A stretch of DNA of 64,000 nucleotides from Micavibrio sp. (GCA_028283745.1 JAPWJZ010000008.1:715762-779761); one strand, 5' to 3'. Shown: positions 948 through 10,925, numbered from the stretch's first letter. The notes: generated from the sequence alone by a model not told the origin. Program-made: numbers and translations.

Positions 948-2405
<1,458 letters not shown>

Positions 2406-2415
2406 GGAATACGTC

Positions 2416-2442
2416 TCCCGCGCTTTTTTAAAAAGCGCGGGA
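2416..2442 (+). other. Intercistronic palindromic stem-loop between atpD and atpC
   Basis: tcccgcgcttttttaaaaagcgcggga forms an ~11-bp stem (c17-g41 through t26-a32). No T-tract follows the 3' arm, so it is probably an mRNA structure rather than a full terminator. Confidence 0.4.
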
Positions 2443-2512
2443 ACCTTCCTCAAGGAACGCGTGTTAATGGTTTTAGGCCGGCATGCGTTCCAATAAGAGA
2501 CAGGAGTTACCC

Positions 2513-2938
2513 ATGGCTGAAGCCACCACAACGACCACCCCGACTTTCCAGTTCGAGCTTGTCTCGCCGGAAAAAATCCTTGTTTCCGAACAGGCGAAAA
2601 TGGTTGTTGTGCCGGGCGAAGCCGGTGACTTCGGCGTGCTGGCGCAGCATTCGCCACTGCTGTCCTCCATCCGCCCCGGTGTTGTCACGCTGTTTACGCC
2701 CGACGGCGGTACCCGCCGCATCTTCGTCGCTGGCGGCTTTGCAGACGTTAACCCCACACTTTGCTCCGTCCTTGCAGAAGAAGCCGTCAACGTGGACGAT
2801 CTGGACCGCAGCAAGCTTGAAATAGACCTCAAGAACCTCGAAGAAGACCTCGACGGCTCCAAGTCCGACCCGCTGAAAGTCGCAAGCCTGCAAGCGCAGA
2901 TCGACGTGACCCGCGCTAAAATTCAGGCGACGGCATAA
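2513..2938 (+). CDS. atpC: F0F1 ATP synthase epsilon subunit
   Basis: The ORF opens at 2483, but ATG 2513 has an AGGAG RBS at 2502-2506. Sequence FQFELVSPEKILVSEQAKMVVVPGEAGDFGVLAQHSPLLS is typical of the epsilon beta-sandwich. It is the last gene of atpGDC. Confidence 0.9.
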   Translation: MAEATTTTTPTFQFELVSPEKILVSEQAKMVVVPGEAGDFGVLAQHSPLLSSIRPGVVTLFTPDGGTRRIFVAGGFADVNPTLCSVLAEEAVNVDDLDRSKLEIDLKNLEEDLDGSKSDPLKVASLQAQIDVTRAKIQATA

Positions 2939-2960
2939 ATTTTAAGAAATTCCGATGAAT

Positions 2961-2990
2961 AAAAAACCCCGCATCACGCGGGGTTTTTTA
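2961..2990. terminator. Bidirectional rho-independent terminator between convergent atpC and the AAA-like array
   Basis: aaaaaaCCCCGCatcacGCGGGGtttttt: a GC stem flanked by an A-tract and a T-tract. Confidence 0.7.
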
Positions 2991-3647
2991 TTTGAGCGTC
3001 TGGGGTTTTGTGCCAAACCGCAGCGGCTTTAACAGCTTCACGCCGCGGTTAACGGCAACATTCACTTCAGGGCGGGTCTTCCAGTCCAGAATATCTTCCT
3101 GTTGCTGCTTCAGCTCGAATTCACGGCGCAGGCGCGCGTTGCGTTCCGCATTAAAGGCGGCGGATTCTTCAACCGTAAAGCTGCGGGTGATTTCTACGGG
3201 CGTAAGCGCAAGGCTGTTGCGTGTTGTTGTCGGCAGGTCCGCGATGAAGTCTTTCATCTCCGCAGGGGTTCCGGTGATCAGCACAATGGTGCTGCCGGTT
3301 TCCAGCGTTTCCGCCAGTTGCGCCAGCAGGATGTGCCGCTCCATTTTGGCTGCCGCCGGGTCTTCCAGCAGCAGCATCTTGCCCTTGGCCTCGTTAAAGA
3401 CGTCTTCAATGTCGCTTGGCAGCGGCTGCCGGTTGCAATCCAGCCGCACGGGTTCTTTTTGCGGGGTAATGCCCAGGTCAAACAAGGCGGCTGCATAGTC
3501 ATGCCCCAGCGATGTGCGGCCGGAATTTTCCGGCCCCGTCACCACCTGCCATAGCGCGCCGAAAAGGGTTTCGCTGCTGCGGCCAAGGTTATGCGCAATA
3601 TCCCGTATATCTTTTGCATTGGCTGTGAGGTGGTCAAGCGGCAGCAT
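2988..3647 (-). CDS. Degenerate AAA+-like P-loop protein, paralog 4 of 4 (SpoVK/CbbX-like core, C-terminal LKPLRF tail)
   Basis: The ORF extends to TTG 3671. ATG 3647 sits 4 nt after the paralog-3 stop, with a GAAGGG RBS. Walker-A-like GPENSGRTS, Walker-B-like MLLLEDP, RSFTVEE motif, tail VKLLKPLRFGTKPQTLK. Alignable by eye with the three upstream genes. Confidence 0.7.
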   Translation of the reverse strand: MLPLDHLTANAKDIRDIAHNLGRSSETLFGALWQVVTGPENSGRTSLGHDYAAALFDLGITPQKEPVRLDCNRQPLPSDIEDVFNEAKGKMLLLEDPAAAKMERHILLAQLAETLETGSTIVLITGTPAEMKDFIADLPTTTRNSLALTPVEITRSFTVEESAAFNAERNARLRREFELKQQQEDILDWKTRPEVNVAVNRGVKLLKPLRFGTKPQTLK

Positions 3648-3651
3648 CGGC

Positions 3652-4299
3652 TTAACCCTTCGGCTTGTCAAAGCGTGCGGGCTTCAGGGGTACGACCGGC
3701 TGGCTTGTTTCCACGTTGGCGGCGCCCACGCCATCCCAGCTTTGCTTCAATACAAGGCGTTTGATGGCCGAGTTGCTCATGCCATTGAACTGCGCCTGCC
3801 GCCCGTAATAATTGTTGATCTCCTGAAACGAAAAACTATGCGTCAGTTCAATGCGCGACGTAATGTGGTGGCGCAGGGTGGGGGAGTGGCTCAAGGCCAC
3901 TTCCATCCCGGGCTTTTCCGCCGTGATGATAACGGGGTTGCCGCTGCTGACGGCCTGCACAATAAGCTGTTCAATCAACGCCCATTGCGGCATGCCGTGC
4001 AGCCTGTCCGGGTCATCCACCAGTACGGCCTTGCCGGGTGCAAGCTTGGCGATGGCATCAAGGATGGTCTGCGCGCCGGGGCGCTGGCCGCAATTGACCA
4101 GCACGGGCTGCGTATCTGCGATAAAGCCTTTGTCTTTCAGGGCTTCGATATACTCATACGCCTGCGTCGATTTGCCGGATTTTCGCGGGCCCAAAATCAT
4201 CTGGTGCAAATGCTGGCCGGGCAATGCCTTCATGCCGCGCTCTACGCGCTCGCGCAGACTTTCGGCGCGCAGCAGCGATTTTTCAAGGTCGTCATGCAT
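3652..4299 (-). CDS. AAA+-like P-loop protein, paralog 3 of 4 (the only one with a canonical GKS Walker A)
   Basis: 215 aa. ATG 4299 overlaps the paralog-2 stop (ATGCATGA). GPRKSGKST, AVLVDDPD, HSFSFQE, tail VVPLKPARFDKPKG. Confidence 0.75.
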   Translation of the reverse strand: MHDDLEKSLLRAESLRERVERGMKALPGQHLHQMILGPRKSGKSTQAYEYIEALKDKGFIADTQPVLVNCGQRPGAQTILDAIAKLAPGKAVLVDDPDRLHGMPQWALIEQLIVQAVSSGNPVIITAEKPGMEVALSHSPTLRHHITSRIELTHSFSFQEINNYYGRQAQFNGMSNSAIKRLVLKQSWDGVGAANVETSQPVVPLKPARFDKPKG

Positions 4300-4936
4300 G
4301 GCTGTTGCCGGCAGGGCGGAAGCGCAGCGGTTTTAAGGCCTTCACTGGCGCGGTAATGGTTACGCTGGCAACGGGGTTTTCCTGCCAGTGGCGCAGGTTG
4401 TCCTGCCGTGTCAGGGTGCCATCGCGGTCGTTGTCAAACGCCGCGCGCTCCGCCGGGGTAAAGCTGCGCTCCGTCTTCAGCATGGCGGGCAGGAGGGCGG
4501 CGCGGGGGCCGTCTTCCAGTTTTTCCAGCACGCCAGTCACCGTCGGCACGCTGCCGATAACGACGACGATGCTGCGCTGGTTGTTGAAAGCTTTGTTCAG
4601 CTCCGTCGTCAGCGTCACGGCCATGCTGGAATCCAGCTTGTCCGCTTCCTGAATGATGAGGATATTTCCTGTCGCGCGCGCAAAAGCATCGCGGATGTAA
4701 ACCGCGCTTTTGGCACGGTCGCAGCTCAAGACATCAGGGAAGCGCTCCGGCAACAGGTTCGCATTGCGAAGGTCGATGGCATACTCCCGCGCCAGCGTTT
4801 CCTTGCCGGATACAGCCGGCCCCGAAATGCTCTGCCACAGGGAGGGAAAGTAGGTGCGTTTATCGACGGGGAAGTGGCCTGCGCTGGTGGCGGCATCCTG
4901 CACGGCATTCTTCAAATGCTGGCGCGCATCGCTCAT
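4292..4936 (-). CDS. Degenerate AAA+-like P-loop protein, paralog 2 of 4
   Basis: 214 aa. ATG 4936 is 1 nt after the paralog-1 stop. GPAVSGKET, ILIIQEADKLD, RSFTPAE, tail VKALKPLRFRPAGNSHA. Confidence 0.7.
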   Translation of the reverse strand: MSDARQHLKNAVQDAATSAGHFPVDKRTYFPSLWQSISGPAVSGKETLAREYAIDLRNANLLPERFPDVLSCDRAKSAVYIRDAFARATGNILIIQEADKLDSSMAVTLTTELNKAFNNQRSIVVVIGSVPTVTGVLEKLEDGPRAALLPAMLKTERSFTPAERAAFDNDRDGTLTRQDNLRHWQENPVASVTITAPVKALKPLRFRPAGNSHA

Positions 4937-4937
4937 G

Positions 4938-5636
4938 TTACGGGCCCCGCGGCGGGCCGAAGCGCACGGGCTTCAGCGGTTTGACGTTGTTGGCTACCGC
5001 AACCTCGACGCTTTTGCGCTGGCGCCATTCTTCCATGGAGGATGCCTTGCGGTCTTCGGCATCACGCTCTTGCGTGCTTAAATTAGCGCGCCGCGCGGCT
5101 TCTGCTTTTGCGGCGTGATAAGCGTCAATTTCCGCCTGACGGAAGGTGCGGTCCGTATGCACGGTGCCGCTGAAGCGGCGTTTCAGGCCGGGTTCTTCCT
5201 TCAGCCTATCCGCCATCGCATGTTCTTCGGCAACCAGAATGAAAACCGTTTTGCGGTCTTCATAGGCGTTCTTCAAAAGGATGATGGCATCATAGCCGTT
5301 AAAGTCGCGGGCCAGCAGGTGAGCGTTATCGATGATAAGGCTGCCGCCACGGCTGTCCGCAAGAAATTTTTTAAAAGTGTCCTGGTCCGGCTGCGCTGCG
5401 CAATCCAGTACCAGCGTGCGCCACGAAAGTTTTTGCGCCAGTAACGCCGCCGCATAGGATTCAGCCTCCGTCGTGCGGCCGGATTGGGGGGGGCCGACAA
5501 TAAGCTGGTGCAGCTGGCTTGTCGTATCGACGACAACACCGGCGCTATTCTGCACACGCATCAGGGCGTTATTAAATTCCTCCCGCAGAGGCATGGCGGT
5601 TCTTTCAAAGACGGCGTTTTTTTTGCGTGAAAGCAT
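4938..5636 (-). CDS. AAA+-like P-loop protein, paralog 1 of 4 (closest to the SpoVK/CbbX signature)
   Basis: 232 aa from ATG 5636. The alternative ATG 5594 gives 218 aa, matching its paralogs. LHQLIVGPPQSGRTT, GGSLIIDNAHLL and EEPGLKRRF resemble hhhGPPGTGKTT / GGVLFIDEA / NPGLxSRF of SpoVK/CbbX-type AAA+. Tail VKPLKPVRFGPPRGP. Confidence 0.75.
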   Translation of the reverse strand: MLSRKKNAVFERTAMPLREEFNNALMRVQNSAGVVVDTTSQLHQLIVGPPQSGRTTEAESYAAALLAQKLSWRTLVLDCAAQPDQDTFKKFLADSRGGSLIIDNAHLLARDFNGYDAIILLKNAYEDRKTVFILVAEEHAMADRLKEEPGLKRRFSGTVHTDRTFRQAEIDAYHAAKAEAARRANLSTQERDAEDRKASSMEEWRQRKSVEVAVANNVKPLKPVRFGPPRGP

Positions 5637-5679
5637 ACTTTATATGCGCGTCAGAATAGCAAAGGTTATGGATAATTAC

Positions 5680-5710
5680 CAGAAAAGCCTTAGCGTTTCC
5701 GCTAAGGCTT
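5680..5710 (-). terminator. Hairpin (candidate terminator) between the Cys-rich gene and the AAA-like array
   Basis: Perfect 10-bp inverted repeat aagccttagc (5685-5694) / gctaaggctt (5701-5710) with a 6-nt loop. On the minus strand it is followed by TTTCT. Confidence 0.45.
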
Positions 5711-5740
5711 TGATCTGGATTAATAAATAGCCTGTTTTTA

Positions 5741-6307
5741 TCAGGTCGGGATGCTGGGGAATTCCTCCGCCAGCGTCGGCGGGCGGTCAATGTGCAAATC
5801 CTCGATCGCGGCACCCTGTTGGGCCATGTCGCGGCAGGCAATAGCGCAGGCACGGCAAATATCGGCGCAGCGCTGCATTTCACCGTCGGCGGTGGCATCA
5901 TTGGGTTGCATGCTCTCGCAAGAATCCGCGCAGGCATCTGCCACATTTGCAGCGGCAGCGCAGACGGAAGTATGAAGGGGCGAACCACGCGTCATGAAAT
6001 CCGCCGCGGCCTGGCAGATATCCATGCAGTCCAGCATGGACTGCACATGCGTGGGGCCTACGTATTTGCCGCCTTTTGAAAGGCAATGTTCCACCAGCGT
6101 GCGCTGCACGGTGTGGCGTGCCTGCCAGCACAGGCGAATGCATTCATCCAGATCCGGCGACACCTCTGCCGTCTGCACGCCCGGTACGGAAAGGTGCATG
6201 TCTGCGCTCATCAGTTCTGCGCTCATCGGCTTTTTTATGCCGGTTCTTTTGGTGATGTTCTTTTGGCCTAAATTCTTTTGACCGGAATTATTTTGAATGG
6301 TGTCCAT
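5741..6307 (-). CDS. Cysteine-rich four-helix-bundle protein (DUF326 / copper-binding-type Cys repeats)
   Basis: 188 aa. Repeated Cx3Cx2C-type spacing: CIRLCWQ, CMDICQAAADF, CAAAANVADACADSCE, CADICRACAIACRD. The N-terminal ~50 aa are polar with no signal peptide seen. Start uncertain (internal Met codons present). Confidence 0.7.
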   Translation of the reverse strand: MDTIQNNSGQKNLGQKNITKRTGIKKPMSAELMSADMHLSVPGVQTAEVSPDLDECIRLCWQARHTVQRTLVEHCLSKGGKYVGPTHVQSMLDCMDICQAAADFMTRGSPLHTSVCAAAANVADACADSCESMQPNDATADGEMQRCADICRACAIACRDMAQQGAAIEDLHIDRPPTLAEEFPSIPT

Positions 6308-6506
6308 GTGCGTCTGCCTCCAACGTCCGTTTCCAAGATCTATTTTGTTGTCGAACGGTAAACGTGCGAAGCGGGGGTATGGTTCCTTGGATATTAAATT
6401 ATCAGCCGATAACAGGCACTTGGCCTTGCCTGAAGCGCAGGGGCTTTTATATAAGGCGCAAAGGGGCTATATAAATAATGCTGCCCGAAACAAGGAGAAT
6501 TAAGTC

Positions 6507-8000
6507 ATGTCCCAAGCCGCCGTAAAAATCGTCGATGCCGCTGCCGAGCTGCAATTGAAAGACGCAAAGCTGTTCCGGCAGCTGGCCTATGTTGACGGGC
6601 AATGGACGGCGGCGGAAGGCGGCCGCATTTTAGAGGTGAACAACCCCGCGACCGAACAAATTCTGGGCACCGTGCCCAACATGGGCGCTGCCGATACAAA
6701 GAAGGCGATTGAAGCGGCGCACAAGGCGTTTGAAAGCTGGCGCACCATGCTCGCCGCCGACCGCGCAAAAATTTTAAAAAAATGGGCGGATTTGCAGGCC
6801 GAGCATATCGACGACCTCAGCCGTATTCTTACTGCCGAGCAGGGCAAGCCGCTTTCGCAGGCAAAGGCTGAAATTCAAAGCGGCATCGCCTATGTGGAAT
6901 GGATGGCCGAAGAAGGCCGCCGCGTATACGGCGACATTATTCCGACGCACAACAAAAACCACCGGCTTGTCACGCTGAAGCAGCCGGTTGGCGTTTGCGT
7001 GATGATTACGCCGTGGAACTTCCCCAGCTCCATGATCACGCGCAAAACCGGCCCCGCGCTGGCGGCAGGCTGCACCGTTGTGATCAAGCCATCGGAAATG
7101 ACGCCGTTTTCCGCGCTGGCGCTGGCGGAGCTTGCCGAGCGCGCGGGTATTCCGAAGGGCGTTTTGAACATCATCATTGGTGAAGCACAGCCGATTGGGA
7201 AGGAAATGACGGATAACCCGCTCGTCAAAAAGCTCAGCTTCACGGGCTCCACCGCCATCGGCAAAATGCTGATGGCGCAATGCGCGGCAACGGTTAAAAA
7301 AGTATCGCTGGAACTGGGCGGCAACGCGCCGTTCATTATTTTTGACGATGCGAATATTGATGATGCGGTTGCCGGGGCCATTGCATCGAAGTTCCGCAAC
7401 AGTGGCCAGACCTGCGTTTGCGCCAACCGCATTTTTGTGCAGGACGGCATTTACGATGCCTTCGCGCAGAAATTCAGCGAAGCAGTCGCCAAAATGAAAA
7501 CCGGCAACGGGCTTGATGACGGCATCGACCTTGGCCCGCTGATTAACATGAAGGGCCTTGAAAAGGTTGAACAGCATTTGGCGGATGCAACATCCAAGGG
7601 TGCGAAGGTGGCCACCGGCGGCAAGCGCCACAAAATGGGCGCGACATTCTTCGAGCCGACAGTGCTGACGAACGCCACGACCGATATGCGCTTCTTCCGT
7701 GAAGAAACCTTTGGCCCGCTGGCGCCGCTGTTCCGCTTCAAGACGGATGACGAAGCCATCCGCCTTGCCAATGATACCGAATACGGCCTTGCGGCGTTTG
7801 TGTATACCAACAACTACAGCCGCGTCTGGCGCGTATCGGAAGCGCTTGAATACGGCATGGTGGGCGTGAACAGCGTTTCAATCGTAGCGGCGCAGGCGCC
7901 TTTTGGCGGCTGGAAACAGTCGGGCATGGGCACCGAAGGCTCCAAATACGGGATCGAGGATTACCTTGAAATCAAGCTGATGAGCATTGGCGGGGTTTAA
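6507..8000 (+). CDS. gabD: NAD(P)+-dependent succinate-semialdehyde dehydrogenase
   Basis: 497 aa. AGGAG RBS. Near-collinear by eye with E. coli GabD: ITPWNFPSSMITRKTGPALAAGCTVVIKPSE, KKVSLELGGNAPFIIFDDA, FRNSGQTCVCANR. Confidence 0.93.
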   Translation: MSQAAVKIVDAAAELQLKDAKLFRQLAYVDGQWTAAEGGRILEVNNPATEQILGTVPNMGAADTKKAIEAAHKAFESWRTMLAADRAKILKKWADLQAEHIDDLSRILTAEQGKPLSQAKAEIQSGIAYVEWMAEEGRRVYGDIIPTHNKNHRLVTLKQPVGVCVMITPWNFPSSMITRKTGPALAAGCTVVIKPSEMTPFSALALAELAERAGIPKGVLNIIIGEAQPIGKEMTDNPLVKKLSFTGSTAIGKMLMAQCAATVKKVSLELGGNAPFIIFDDANIDDAVAGAIASKFRNSGQTCVCANRIFVQDGIYDAFAQKFSEAVAKMKTGNGLDDGIDLGPLINMKGLEKVEQHLADATSKGAKVATGGKRHKMGATFFEPTVLTNATTDMRFFREETFGPLAPLFRFKTDDEAIRLANDTEYGLAAFVYTNNYSRVWRVSEALEYGMVGVNSVSIVAAQAPFGGWKQSGMGTEGSKYGIEDYLEIKLMSIGGV

Positions 8001-8355: not shown

Positions 8356-10458
8356 ATGGAATCGGACCGGGGCCCGGCAGAAGCCGGGGTCAACGCAGCA
8401 CCCGAACAGCGCGCCACGCCGAAAGGCGATAGCGGCTTTGAATCCATTCTGGCGACGACCAGTGACGCCGGCCATATCATGGTTGGTCCCGACATCGAAA
8501 TTTTCCCCGCCCGCCCGCGGCCAGACCTTGCCAGCATCGAAACACAGGCGTTTGATGCAAAAGACCGCCGCATTGGCGGTGAACAGTTTGCGCTGCTTTG
8601 CCGCAACAGCCGCGTGCCGGCGGCAACCAGCATCGGGTCTTACAAAAACCTGCGCACCCACAACGTGATCCGCCTTTTGCAGGCCGGTATTATTGACTGG
8701 AAGCCGGATGGCCGCCAACGCCTTGCGCTTGTGTTTGAAAAGCCGCAGGGCCGCCGGTTGCTGGCGGAGCAGAATGGCAAGCCGCTGCATATTGCCGAAG
8801 ACCGCCTGATTGAAACGCTGATCAAGCCCGTGCTGGAAGTGCTGCAGGAATTCCGCGAGGTTGACATGGTGCATGGGGCCATCAGCCTCGACAACATGTT
8901 CCTGCATGGCGCGGAAGGCAATGAAAAGGTGATGCTGGGCGAATGCCTGTCCAGCGCGCCGTTCTTCCGCCAGAGCGCGCTGTTCTGCACCATTGAAAAA
9001 GGCATGGCGCAACCCTCCGGCCGCGGCGCGGGCACGCTGAAGGACGACCTTTATTCCCTTGGCATATGTGTGGCCATGCTGGCGCGCGGCATTAACTTTA
9101 TGGCCGATAAAAAACCGGGGCAGATTTTGGTGGAGAAGATGGAGCAGGGCTCCTTCGCCTTCGCCAGCGGCGGGGAACGGCTTGCGCCCGCGCTGTCCGA
9201 ATTCCTGCGCGGCGTCTTGAACGATGATGAAAAGCAGCGCTGGGAAATTGACGAAGCCTTACGCTGGTCCGAAGGCCGCAGGGTTGCGACCAAGCAGCAA
9301 TACGTTCCCATGAAGGCCTCGCGCCCCTTCGTGTTCCGCGATGAAAAGTATTGGGATTTACGCTCCCTTTCCTATGCTTTTTCGCAGCACGTTTCGGAAG
9401 CGGCGGCAGCGCTGGAAAAAGACCATTTCCTGCTCTGGATCAAGCGCAACTTTGAAGACAAGCTTCTGGCCAAGCGTCTCGACCCCATCTGGTCGGACAA
9501 CAAGAACGAAGCCAAGGAACGCGTGGTTTCTGCCGTTTGCGCCGCGCTCGATACGCGCGCGCCCGTGCGCTATCGCGGCCTTGCCATTTTTCCGACCGGT
9601 TTTGCCGGTGCGCTCGCCGAAGTGATGGCGCGGCAGGAAGATGTGCAGGCGCATGCGGAAATGATTGCGACGCAAATGTTCTCCAGCTGGCTGAACCATT
9701 ATTTCGAGGTCGAGGGCGGGGAAGACAGCTCCGGCCTTGTGACGCTGTTTGAAAAGTGCCGAAGCTTCCTCGTGCAGAAAATGCCGGTCTACGGCATCGA
9801 GCGCGTGCTGTATATGCTGAACAAGGAAGTCAGCTGCATGAGCCCCGTGCTGCTGAAGCACGTGGTCTTGAGCCCCGGCAGCCTGCTGCTGGCGCTGGAA
9901 GATATTGCGCGCGGCGCCAACAAGCCCGAAAATATTCTCGACCGCCACATGATGGCGTTTATTTCCGTGCGGGAGCCGAAAATGATCGACCCGTATTTAG
10001 GGCATGTTATTTCCCGCGACCGGGGTTACCAGATGGTGGGCATTACCCGCGTGCTGGCGGCTATTCAACGGCGCTTCAATACCGGCGCGGTGCCGGCGCT
10101 GGGCAACTGGCTTATTTCGCTTATTGGCCCCGCCGTTGACCGTTTCAACGACCGCGATTTGCGGGCGGAACTGGGCCGCCGCACGGGCAAACTTGAAAAT
10201 TCCGGCAACCTTTCCGCTATTCTCGAGCTTATCGACAATGGCAACCTGGTGCAGGAAGACCTGCAGAAATATGTGCTGGCACGCCGCGAATTCGCAGGAC
10301 TGCTGCGGGAACGCGCGTTGATCGAAGGCCAGCTGCAGCGCCGCAAAACCTTTGGCCGCGGCGCAGGGCGGCAGGTGGCGATGGTTATTTCGGCTTCCAT
10401 TTCGCTGCTGTGCATTCTTGGCTATCTCATCATGCATTTTTCGGGGAGTGCCGCCTGA
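8356..10458 (+). CDS. Membrane-anchored protein-kinase-like protein, predicted catalytically inactive
   Basis: 700 aa. Kinase-fold landmarks are present but degenerate. The catalytic-loop equivalent is MVHGAISLDNMFL (HGA in place of HRD, S in place of K). LGEC replaces DFG. TIEKGMAQP sits where APE would be. DDLYSLGICVAMLARG matches subdomain IX well. No GxGxxG or VAIK Lys seen. A ~340-aa C-terminal domain is followed by one TM helix, VAMVISASISLLCILGYLIMHF. Confidence 0.75.
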   Translation: MESDRGPAEAGVNAAPEQRATPKGDSGFESILATTSDAGHIMVGPDIEIFPARPRPDLASIETQAFDAKDRRIGGEQFALLCRNSRVPAATSIGSYKNLRTHNVIRLLQAGIIDWKPDGRQRLALVFEKPQGRRLLAEQNGKPLHIAEDRLIETLIKPVLEVLQEFREVDMVHGAISLDNMFLHGAEGNEKVMLGECLSSAPFFRQSALFCTIEKGMAQPSGRGAGTLKDDLYSLGICVAMLARGINFMADKKPGQILVEKMEQGSFAFASGGERLAPALSEFLRGVLNDDEKQRWEIDEALRWSEGRRVATKQQYVPMKASRPFVFRDEKYWDLRSLSYAFSQHVSEAAAALEKDHFLLWIKRNFEDKLLAKRLDPIWSDNKNEAKERVVSAVCAALDTRAPVRYRGLAIFPTGFAGALAEVMARQEDVQAHAEMIATQMFSSWLNHYFEVEGGEDSSGLVTLFEKCRSFLVQKMPVYGIERVLYMLNKEVSCMSPVLLKHVVLSPGSLLLALEDIARGANKPENILDRHMMAFISVREPKMIDPYLGHVISRDRGYQMVGITRVLAAIQRRFNTGAVPALGNWLISLIGPAVDRFNDRDLRAELGRRTGKLENSGNLSAILELIDNGNLVQEDLQKYVLARREFAGLLRERALIEGQLQRRKTFGRGAGRQVAMVISASISLLCILGYLIMHFSGSAA

Positions 10459-10925
10459 TGGCTGAAGCCGCGCCCAAAAAGAAAAAAATCCCCTTCAGCG
10501 TCAAGTTCGCTATTTTGTGCGTGCTGGTGACGGCGGCGCTGTTCCTTCCCACGACGTTGCTGTTCTGCGGCTGCCTTGTGCCGACGGTCGTGGCCTTCAT
10601 CATCGACCCGCATCCGCAAAAGACAGCCTGGGTCACGGTGGGCTGCATGAACTTCGCCGGCACCGTGCCCGCATGGATGCTGCTGATTGGCAACGGCGCG
10701 TCGAGCGGCAATCATATTGATCAGGCAATGTCGATTTTAATGCAGGCCAGCACCATCATCATGGCCTATGGCGGGGCGGCTGCGGGCTGGCTCATCTTCA
10801 ACAACGTCACGCCGCTCGTCTCCGGCCTCATGGTCATGAAGAACGAGAAAAGATTGAAAGACATAGATAAAAGGCAAAAAGAGCTGGCCCGCAAATGGGG
10901 CCCAGATGTCTCTACCATGGGGTAA
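10458..10925 (+). CDS. Small polytopic membrane protein (about 4 TM), function unknown
   Basis: ATG 10458 overlaps the upstream stop (TGATG). MAEAAPKKKK is followed by hydrophobic segments FAILCVLVTAALFL, VPTVVAFII, AGTVPAWMLLI and IIMAYGGAAAGWLIF, then a charged C-tail. Confidence 0.6.
   Translation: MAEAAPKKKKIPFSVKFAILCVLVTAALFLPTTLLFCGCLVPTVVAFIIDPHPQKTAWVTVGCMNFAGTVPAWMLLIGNGASSGNHIDQAMSILMQASTIIMAYGGAAAGWLIFNNVTPLVSGLMVMKNEKRLKDIDKRQKELARKWGPDVSTMG

Follow-up and report, generated by a model that had tools for sequence, protein, structure and literature searches.

A tandem array of lid-truncated, tail-bearing AAA+ paralogues in Micavibrio sp. appears to be an undescribed offshoot of the SpoVK/CbbX/EccA clade

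Introduction

Members of the SpoVK/CbbX/EccA-like clade of AAA+ proteins are recognised by a GY signature at sensor-1, a sensor-2 Arg, and an Asn located four positions ahead of the first Arg finger, and they carry a four-helix lid that binds ribulose bisphosphate (RuBP) in CbbX (PMC11513918). Characterised members act on narrow, dedicated targets (PMC11513918). CbbX needs a canonical Tyr/Ile/Gly pore loop to remodel Rubisco, and the red-algal form is a 1:1 hetero-hexamer (PMC5385338). Here we analysed a 64,000-nt stretch of Micavibrio sp. DNA (GCA_028283745.1 JAPWJZ010000008.1:715762-779761; hereafter the window, in which all positions are counted) and describe within it an array of four consecutive minus-strand genes, P1 to P4, whose products appear to be a lid-truncated, tail-bearing, multi-paralogue offshoot of this clade that is undescribed. 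We found no description of such a system and no curated family for it, and the paper on the clade does not mention tandem or paralogous arrays (PMC11513918), in keeping with a preliminary description of the locus that had not recognised it as a described system.

The array keeps the AAA+ core and discards most of the lid in a multi-paralogue set under purifying selection, and it could show both the minimum needed for AAA+ assembly and how inactive AAA+ subunits are used. Oligomerisation and nucleotide sensing by AAA+ proteins are generally regarded as depending on the lid subdomain and sensor-2. Heteromeric AAA+ complexes that mix active and inactive subunits include the clamp loader (RFC/gamma complex), ORC, and Pex1/Pex6, with RFC and ORC showing switch-like, non-threading behaviour. 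The natural variants of the array, with three to five subunits and including members that lack a P-loop, amount to a ready-made mutational series, and the array would add a new architecture to a clade of dedicated chaperones. For lack of a known client or phenotype, it is of modest immediate impact.

Results and discussion

Four paralogous genes are tightly packed on the minus strand

The minus strand of the window contains four consecutive open reading frames (ORFs) of 218, 214, 215, and 219 aa, as read from the ORF list and the minus-strand sequence. P1 occupies positions 4938-5594, with a likely ATG at 5594 that corresponds to the beginning of its orthologue P0004 (MPLREEF); the ORF itself reaches an alternative ATG at 5636 (4938-5636). 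P2 (4292-4936) begins 1 nt past the P1 stop codon (TAAcATG), and the start of P3 (3652-4299) overlaps the P2 stop in an 8-nt overlap (ATGCATGA). P4 (2988-3647) likely starts at ATG 3647 behind a GAAGGG ribosome-binding site, which leaves a 4-nt gap after P3 (TAAgccgATG); an alternative TTG start at 3671 (ORF 2988-3671) would give a 20-nt overlap. The array lies between the 3' end of atpC (2938) and a Csp-type, Cys-rich gene (5741-6307), and its G+C content is that of its neighbours. The gene sizes, strand, tight junctions, and position between the end of the atp operon and a Cys-rich gene are all as the preliminary description had given them. Judging from this layout, the best explanation is that P1 to P4 constitute one co-transcribed, translationally coupled operon.

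Pairwise BLASTP among the four proteins gave 26-29% identity over 188-225 residues (E 3e-10 to 4e-27), and their four-way alignment contains 24 invariant columns. By sequence comparison, this similarity is beyond chance and P1 to P4 are true paralogues.

The paralogues fall within the SpoVK/CbbX/EccA clade

Scanning P1 to P4 against Pfam returned only weak matches to AAA_22 and AAA_14. NCBIfam models for SpoVK (2e-6), EccA (5e-6), and CbbX (4e-4) matched P1, all hundreds of bits under their curated cut-offs (for EccA, 25 bits against a cut-off of 467), and the only PADLOC matches lay in the P-loop region (mad8 with P1 at 3.5e-4 and with P3 at 1.5e-3; PDC-S01 with P3 at 1.5e-3). The profile searches that had been suggested as a check thus placed the four proteins in no well-characterised family, and on this sequence evidence none of the curated Pfam, NCBIfam, or PADLOC families fits them.

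A family profile built from seven sequences matched EccA1 best (9lur; 1.4e-10, profile positions 17-161), followed by CbbX (3zuh at 8.5e-8; 3zuh and 3syk both at about 1e-7), with the next AAA+ match, Cdc48, far behind at 5e-4. The matches to CbbX and EccA1 spanned profile positions 9-161 only, which correspond to the alpha/beta core, and stopped at 151-161 of 216. PF00004 was matched at E<=1e-3 by 12 of 33 family members. The resemblance of P1 to SpoVK, CbbX, and EccA, proposed in the preliminary description from motif comparison, is therefore supported by weak NCBIfam matches and by significant matches of the family profile to EccA1 and CbbX.

Structure prediction with AlphaFold2 (AF2) led to the same relatives. 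The P1 model (predicted local distance difference test [pLDDT] score of 74) had CbbX 3syl as its top Foldseek match (1e-7), and the P3 model (pLDDT 84, predicted template modelling score 0.72) had CbbX 3syk (2.7e-7 over 213 columns). Matches in the PDB at E<=1e-3 numbered 274 for P1 and 97 for P3, and the 50 best listed for each model were almost all AAA+ proteins; Hda, RuvB, and ORC2 were among the lower matches of the P3 model. Both models consist of an N-terminal helix, a five-strand core with its elements in the AAA+ order (strand 1 followed by Walker A, strand 3 bearing Walker B), two more helices, a low-confidence linker, and an extended tail. In the P3 model, the helices following strand 5 span residues 158-172 and 176-190, the linker has a pLDDT of <50, and the tail has a pLDDT of about 70. 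A P-loop NTPase fold, which had been named as a point to check, is thus predicted by both models and agrees with the profile matches.

The closest relatives by sequence and by predicted structure both lie inside the SpoVK/CbbX/EccA clade. Taken together, the sequence and model comparisons indicate that the family is a lineage-restricted, fast-evolving offshoot of this clade and is not an orthologue of CbbX, EccA, or SpoVK. We hold the placement of the family and the reality of the array with high confidence.

Comparison with individual clade members showed what is shared and what is not. CbbX, the red-type Rubisco activase of Rhodobacter sphaeroides (3SYL/3ZUH), was the top structural match for both models and the second-best profile match. 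It has the same order of alpha/beta core elements and an N-terminal helix before Walker A, and its PGL-x-R type of Arg-finger region is kept in P1. In contrast, CbbX is about 310 aa long, compared with about 215 aa here; its four-helix lid, which holds the RuBP allosteric site, and its sensor-2 Arg are missing from P1 to P4, its Tyr/Ile/Gly pore loop is absent from all four window copies, and three of these copies have degenerate Walker A and B motifs. In addition, no array that we examined was linked to red-type rbcL/rbcS, and no Rubisco gene occurred within 10 kb of the array in any locus. EccA1, the type VII secretion ATPase (9LUR) that gave the best profile match, and SpoVK, the Bacillus sporulation chaperone of MurG that weakly matched P1 through NCBIfam, belong to the same higher-order clade. 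Unlike these proteins, P1 to P4 have only one N-terminal helix before the P-loop, with no tetratricopeptide repeat (TPR) or other N-terminal substrate-recruiting domain, and lack AAA_lid_6, the sensor-1 GY, the pre-Arg-finger Asn, and sensor-2. The surroundings of the array contain no type VII secretion system (T7SS) genes and no sporulation context.

The best matches of the profile outside the family itself were multi-module SpoVK-like proteins (1e-47 to 1e-57), of which P0007, P0008, and P0011 (1373-2233 aa) were examined. As in the array, several related AAA modules are held together, there in one polypeptide and here by an operon. Each of these three chains contains 5-6 AAA modules, 4-6 of them with AAA_lid_6, whereas the family described here keeps none; the fused modules also lack the C-terminal W…KPLKxxRF tail described below and match the core only, to about profile position 150-190.

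The array is conserved in one genomic slot with a variable number of copies

Three word-indexed homologue searches, in which P-loop words crowded out other candidates, yielded only 5, 13, and 10 proteins, and we used an exhaustive profile search instead. Its best 150 matches included about 27 short (200-233 aa) full-length clusters, with the remainder being long multi-module AAA proteins matched in the core only. The relatives came from two metagenome-assembled GTDB genomes (found with a narrow P1 alignment) and from metagenome or sequencing-run assemblies, and they resolved into 13 lineages: the window with L003 and L004, L001+L005, L002, L006, L007, L008, L009/L010, L011-L013, L014/L015, L016-L019, L020, L022, and L023. 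As found here, the family occurs in only one small group of alphaproteobacteria. A metagenome scan with another subgroup produced one weak locus, L021, which is probably unrelated.

In every genomic context recovered, the array occupied the same slot. The order of the locus is Tad pilus genes, an approximately 700-aa protein, an approximately 150-aa protein, a divergent aldehyde dehydrogenase (Aldedh) gene, an optional csp gene, the array, and convergent atpC-atpD-atpG. Adjacent array genes overlap or nearly abut in the relatives as well, and the frames are intact in all 13 lineages, so that the neighbourhood survey suggested in the preliminary description found a conserved array. Copy number varied at this slot. 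Three copies are present in L016-L019, L022, and L023; four in the window, L001+L005, L006, L007, and L009/L010; and five in L008 and L014, which are complete, and in L012 and L015, in which the last gene is cut by the contig end. In L011 and L013, the contigs run out after the same first four genes. A range of three to five copies argues against a fixed four-subunit stoichiometry, and this part of the preliminary proposal is not supported.

In comparisons of the window with its closest relative, dN/dS was 0.12-0.25 for all four genes, degenerate copies included (P2, 0.21 against its L001 orthologue; P4, 0.12). These values indicate that purifying selection acts on all four coding sequences. 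They bear directly on whether the genes are decaying duplicates without function. Degenerate catalytic motifs and fast evolution would suit such decay, but intact frames in 13 lineages, the low dN/dS values, and the preservation of translational coupling and of the C-terminal tail all speak against it. The sole disrupted copy was in L004 (SRR22729505), which differs from window positions 2400-7200 by zero substitutions and three 1-nt indels; as a result, P1 is broken into two frames and the csp ORF is longer. This disruption is probably an assembly error and not a real pseudogene, and we give the decay explanation almost no credence.

Despite purifying selection, the array diverges far faster than its neighbours. 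Between the window and L007, identity was 94% for AtpD, 88% for Aldedh, 83% for AtpG, 75% for Csp, and 72% for the approximately 700-aa protein, in contrast to 46% for P1, 35% for P4, and <=28% for P2 and P3. Fast divergence with copy-number change, along with the weak PADLOC matches of the P1 and P3 P-loop regions to mad8 and of that of P3 to PDC-S01, could point to an anti-phage or inter-bacterial conflict system built on CbbX/SpoVK-type NTPases. We consider this very unlikely. No effector, sensor, or mobile-element genes were found near the array, which always sits in the same slot between housekeeping genes and matches their G+C content, and overall dN/dS is well below 1. Searches of plasmid and phage collections recovered no full-length relative: phages gave no match, and AAA proteins of Streptomyces, Sinorhizobium, and Mycobacterium matched in the core domain only. 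From this result, we rejected a mobile origin for the array.

In neighbour-joining trees, proteins from different genomes clustered according to their position in the array. For positions 1 and 4, the window clade grouped with the counterparts in L006 and L007 (orthologues of P4 were found in L005, L006, and L007), and each position in the L008/L009/L012/L014 clade formed its own group. This position-wise grouping implies that the duplications are older than these lineages and that each copy has been kept.

The same data must be weighed with respect to whether the products act together at all. The array could instead record tandem duplication and divergence of independent paralogues, each a homo-oligomer or monomer with a different client. 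The range of three to five copies at one locus, the divergence relative to neighbouring genes, and the unclear orthology of the middle positions when the window clade is compared with L006/L007 would all be expected of such proteins. However, starts and stops overlap or nearly abut in the window, as do adjacent genes in its relatives, and purifying selection acts on subunits that lack a P-loop or have an Arg for the Walker A Lys, although these could not function as ATPases on their own. A tail common to all members also points to a common partner or assembly. On balance, we regard independent action of the paralogues as unlikely.

Nucleotide sites are degenerate in three of the four proteins, and clade features have been lost

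Alignment of the four proteins bore out the motif readings of the preliminary description for Walker A, Walker B, a [RH][ST]F[ST]xxE motif that is present in P1 to P4, and an LKPxRF tail, with three of the proteins being degenerate. In P1 to P4, respectively, Walker A is GRT, GKE, GKS, and GRT, and the Walker B position is DN, QE, DD, and ED. P1 contains GPPQSGRTT (Lys to Arg) and LIIDNAH (Glu to Asn) and retains EPGLKRRF, the Arg-finger motif nearest to the CbbX/EccA form (NPGFRSR / NEGLRSRF). P2 contains GPAVSGKET (Thr to Glu) and LIIQEAD, and P4 contains GPENSGRTS and LLLEDPA. P3, with GPRKSGKST (nt 4165-4191) and the acidic pair of VLVDDPD, is the sole window copy with a canonical Walker A and an acidic pair. 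Relative to a GK[TS] Walker A combined with an hhhhDE Walker B, P1 (GRT/DN), P2 (GKE/QE), and P4 (GRT/ED) depart from the pattern, and P3 has GKS with DD. DnaA and Hda also carry DD at Walker B.

Features beyond the Walker motifs were similarly reduced. No lid model matched any window protein at E<=1, nor did AAA_lid_6 (PF17866), and 0 of 33 family members matched a lid model, AAA_lid_6 included, at E<=1e-3. Where a C-terminal alpha-helical lid would be expected, the chain beyond strand 5 forms no more than two helices and an extended tail. The preliminary description had the lid replaced by a short tail; the usual lid is indeed gone, but the tail is not its sole replacement, being preceded by a two-helix remnant and a flexible linker. 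The four window proteins contain no sensor-2 arginine, and no sensor-1 GY signature, the corresponding positions reading VAEE, IGSV, TAEK, and TGTP. No Asn was found four residues before the first Arg finger in the window; P1 has Glu (EPGLK/RR), and nothing comparable is present in P2 to P4. Where a family member has a recognisable xPGL/xPxL, the equivalent of this Asn is usually D, E, or S, with Asn in few (L008_1 and L014_1: NAPAL). The pore loop is also absent from all four window copies, whose aligned segments (LDCAAQPDQ, LSCDRAKSA, VNCGQRPGA, and LDCNRQPLP) are LDCxxxP-like and without an aromatic residue.

Some relatives retain what the window copies lack. A sensor-1 TGY persists in L016_3, L022_3, L023_2, L023_3, L020_1, P0019, P0027, P0035, and P0039. 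A [YFW][VILM]G pore loop is kept in 4 of 65 family sequences, none of them in the window, and L008_3, L012_4, and P0031 combine a canonical pore loop with Walker motifs and a DPGLxRR Arg-finger motif. Survival of TGY and the pore loop in some relatives indicates that the family descends from a canonical member of the clade and later shed these features.

The degenerate sites themselves are inherited. Walker B reads DNAH in all four position-1 orthologues tabulated, with DQAQ in a further position-1 orthologue, L023_1, and the Arg-for-Lys Walker A (GRT) occurs in 10 of 65 family sequences and is conserved within orthologue groups. The P-loop is gone altogether from L020_2 (ADDEEAANE; L020 2071-2628), L014_3 (AEPGAGRVF; L014 11322-11954), and L022_1 (N-terminally short; L022 1197-1730), all of which retain the core. 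Every complete array mixes canonical and degenerate subunits and includes one or more that combine GK[TS] with D[DE], and arrays of relatives contain two or three canonical subunits. The earlier proposal of one catalytic and three inactive subunits thus fits the motifs of this lineage, but it is not general for the family.

A C-terminal tail is the common signature of the family

Each protein ends in a tail, located at 4941-5033 in P1 (EEWRQRKSVEVAVANNVKPLKPVRFGPPRGP), 4295-4393 in P2, 3655-3744 in P3, and 2991-3089 in P4, all on the minus strand. Across the family, the tail follows the motif W-x(6-9)-[DN][VIL]-x(5-8)-KP[LM]K[TP]xRF. Its W and F were nearly invariant in alignments of 28 and 33 family sequences, while the cores fall to about 25% identity, and the tail persists in the three paralogues without a P-loop (L020_2, L022_1, and L014_3). 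The residues most resistant to change in the family are the P-loop frame G-P…S-G, a Tyr on helix 1, and the tail. We found no match to the tail motif in other ORFs of the window with a strict form of the motif, which also missed P2 and P4.

A tail that is the best-conserved element while catalytic motifs decay raises the prospect that these proteins are pseudo-ATPase adaptors, in which the AAA+ core would be a nucleotide sensor or inert scaffold and the tail would deliver or anchor the proteins to a conserved housekeeping machine, with no mechanical work done. The lack of pore loop, lid, and sensor-2 in the four window copies agrees with such a role, as does the fact that P3 alone, with its DD Walker B, could plausibly hydrolyse ATP. 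Evidence from relatives weighs on the other side: a GK[TS] plus D[DE] subunit (at least one) is kept in every complete array examined, and the full motif set kept by L008_3, L012_4, and P0031 suggests that ATPase activity still matters. We therefore find an adaptor role doubtful for the family as a whole and plausible for this genome in particular.

A hetero-oligomeric, switch-like assembly is proposed

Our favoured interpretation, held tentatively and at somewhat less than even likelihood, is that P1 to P4 form a hetero-oligomeric, switch-like assembly. We infer hetero-oligomerisation because of translational coupling, position-specific orthology, and the presence of non-autonomous subunits. 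In this model, the four paralogues would co-assemble into a hetero-oligomer, with interfaces completed in trans by arginines of the Arg-finger region. From their motifs, P3 (GKS and DD) would be the only subunit able to hydrolyse ATP in this genome, P1 and P4 (GRT) would probably bind nucleotide without turnover, and P2 (GKE) would be mainly structural. The assembly might act as a nucleotide-driven switch or clamp or as an assembly chaperone for a narrow client, probably without threading polypeptide; the absence of a canonical aromatic pore loop makes each of these roles likelier than that of a threading unfoldase. Such a role would fit the dedicated-target behaviour described for the SpoVK/CbbX/EccA clade.

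Two types of assembly offer parallels. Likeness to the RFC/gamma complex, ORC, and Pex1/Pex6 is one of organisation and not of homology: these complexes consist of paralogous subunits of which only some have competent ATP sites, but they belong to other AAA+ clades and their subunits keep lids, whereas our searches placed P1 to P4 with CbbX and EccA. Within the clade, the red-algal 1:1 CbbX hetero-hexamer (PMC5385338) is a heteromeric precedent, and by analogy this hetero-hexamer and the multi-module single chains can be taken as precedents for co-assembly.

The tail could have one of the two following functions in the proposed hetero-oligomer: by folding back across the nucleotide pocket, it may act as a minimal lid whose Arg serves in place of sensor-2, or it may be a docking peptide that brings all subunits to one conserved partner. 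A more specific proposal builds on the first possibility. The array would encode a lid-less hetero-oligomer in which the tail peptide (W…DV…KPLKxxRF) takes the place of the lid and provides a sensor-2-like Arg in cis or to a neighbour, with one ATP-hydrolysing subunit; subunit number (3-5) and sequence would shift fast while the peptide and the pocket stay fixed. This combination of features is speculative, and we think it improbable as a whole.

Several observations weigh against a hetero-oligomeric switch. A copy number of three to five is awkward for a fixed ring, and very fast divergence relative to the neighbouring genes would also fit diversifying, independent paralogues. With DD at its Walker B and no sensor-2, P3 might itself be inactive, which would leave the array without any ATP-hydrolysing subunit. 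Finally, every array lies in one syntenic neighbourhood, so context says nothing about the client; with all 13 lineages sharing a single block, gene context cannot discriminate between candidate partners, ATP synthase and Aldedh among them.

Elements flanking the array

Downstream of the array, a bidirectional intrinsic terminator (AAAAAACCCCGCGTGATGCGGGGTTTTTT; 2961-2989, both strands) was read from the sequence between the convergent P4 and atpC. It folds at -21.1 kcal/mol (z = -6.6 against shuffles) and was not picked up by a consensus scan. Unlike in the window, no intergenic terminator remains in csp-less four- and five-gene lineages, in which atpC and the final gene of the array share 4 nt at their 3' ends (L008, 11250-11867/11864-12286; L009, 11063-11680/11677-12099; L014, 12607-13224/13221-13643).

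Upstream of P1, a hairpin at 5684-5712 on the minus strand (-20.6 kcal/mol, z = -6.0) forms the terminator of the Csp-type gene and marks the array as its own transcription unit. When this region was folded in four genomes, the hairpin was stable in the csp-bearing window and L007, where it terminates csp, and no stable hairpin was found in the csp-less L008 and L016; on this basis, we rejected the hairpin as an RNA leader or attenuator of the array. A search of Rfam found only a tRNA.

A promoter-like element, TTTTCTGGTAATTAT, lies upstream of the array at 5672-5686 on the minus strand and was read as an extended -10 type. In a comparison of 13 loci, it preceded the first array gene in a clear form, TTAAGGnTTTTCTGTAAAAAT (in L023, TTTTCTGGCATAAT), in 11, and the versions in L006 and L007 were more divergent (TTTTTTGT...); a consensus of TTAAGGnTTTTCTG[TG][AT]AA[AT][AT]AT was recognisable upstream of every array compared. 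In L001, L002, L006-L009, L012, L014, L016, L020, L022, and L023, the element lies 30-95 nt before the array begins, and where a csp gene is present, it shares nucleotides with the 3' arm of that gene's terminator. The element went undetected in a scan for the sigma-70 consensus, and comparison by eye with the consensus sequences for sigma-32, sigma-54, EcfG, and the CtrA box gave no fit. Its position and conservation suggest that it is probably an extended -10 promoter.

Other sequence boxes were noted in this region. A second box, GCATATAAAG, at 5638-5647 on the minus strand is kept in the window, L001, L006, and L007. The csp-less L002, L008, L009, L012, and L014 have a conserved GATAAGATAGTCCTATC in the intergenic region between Aldedh and the array, some 100-120 nt ahead of the array's first gene. 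This sequence holds the palindrome GATAG-TC-CTATC, adjoins the start of the divergent aldehyde dehydrogenase gene, and from these features could be an operator site.

The Cys-rich gene at 5741-6307 on the minus strand encodes a four-helix-bundle protein whose orthologues are annotated as PF03860 (Csp, copper storage protein). The window protein itself had no Pfam match and only a weak match to the NCBIfam Csp1 family (0.06). A csp gene is present at the array slot in the window, L001, L006, L007, and L023 and absent in L002, L008, L009, L012, L014, L016, L020, and L022, and with csp missing in many lineages, we rejected a linkage between Csp and the array.

On the far side of the aldehyde dehydrogenase gene, the approximately 700-aa protein (8356-10458, plus strand) has a hydrophobic C terminus and a weak, sub-threshold match to the C-lobe of the PF00069 kinase domain (E 0.005). 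It is followed by the protein of approximately 150-170 aa (10410-10925, plus strand), and the pair, which has no family assignment, lies ahead of the TadE/TadG pilus genes at all related loci. It may be a pseudokinase-like accessory of the Tad system.

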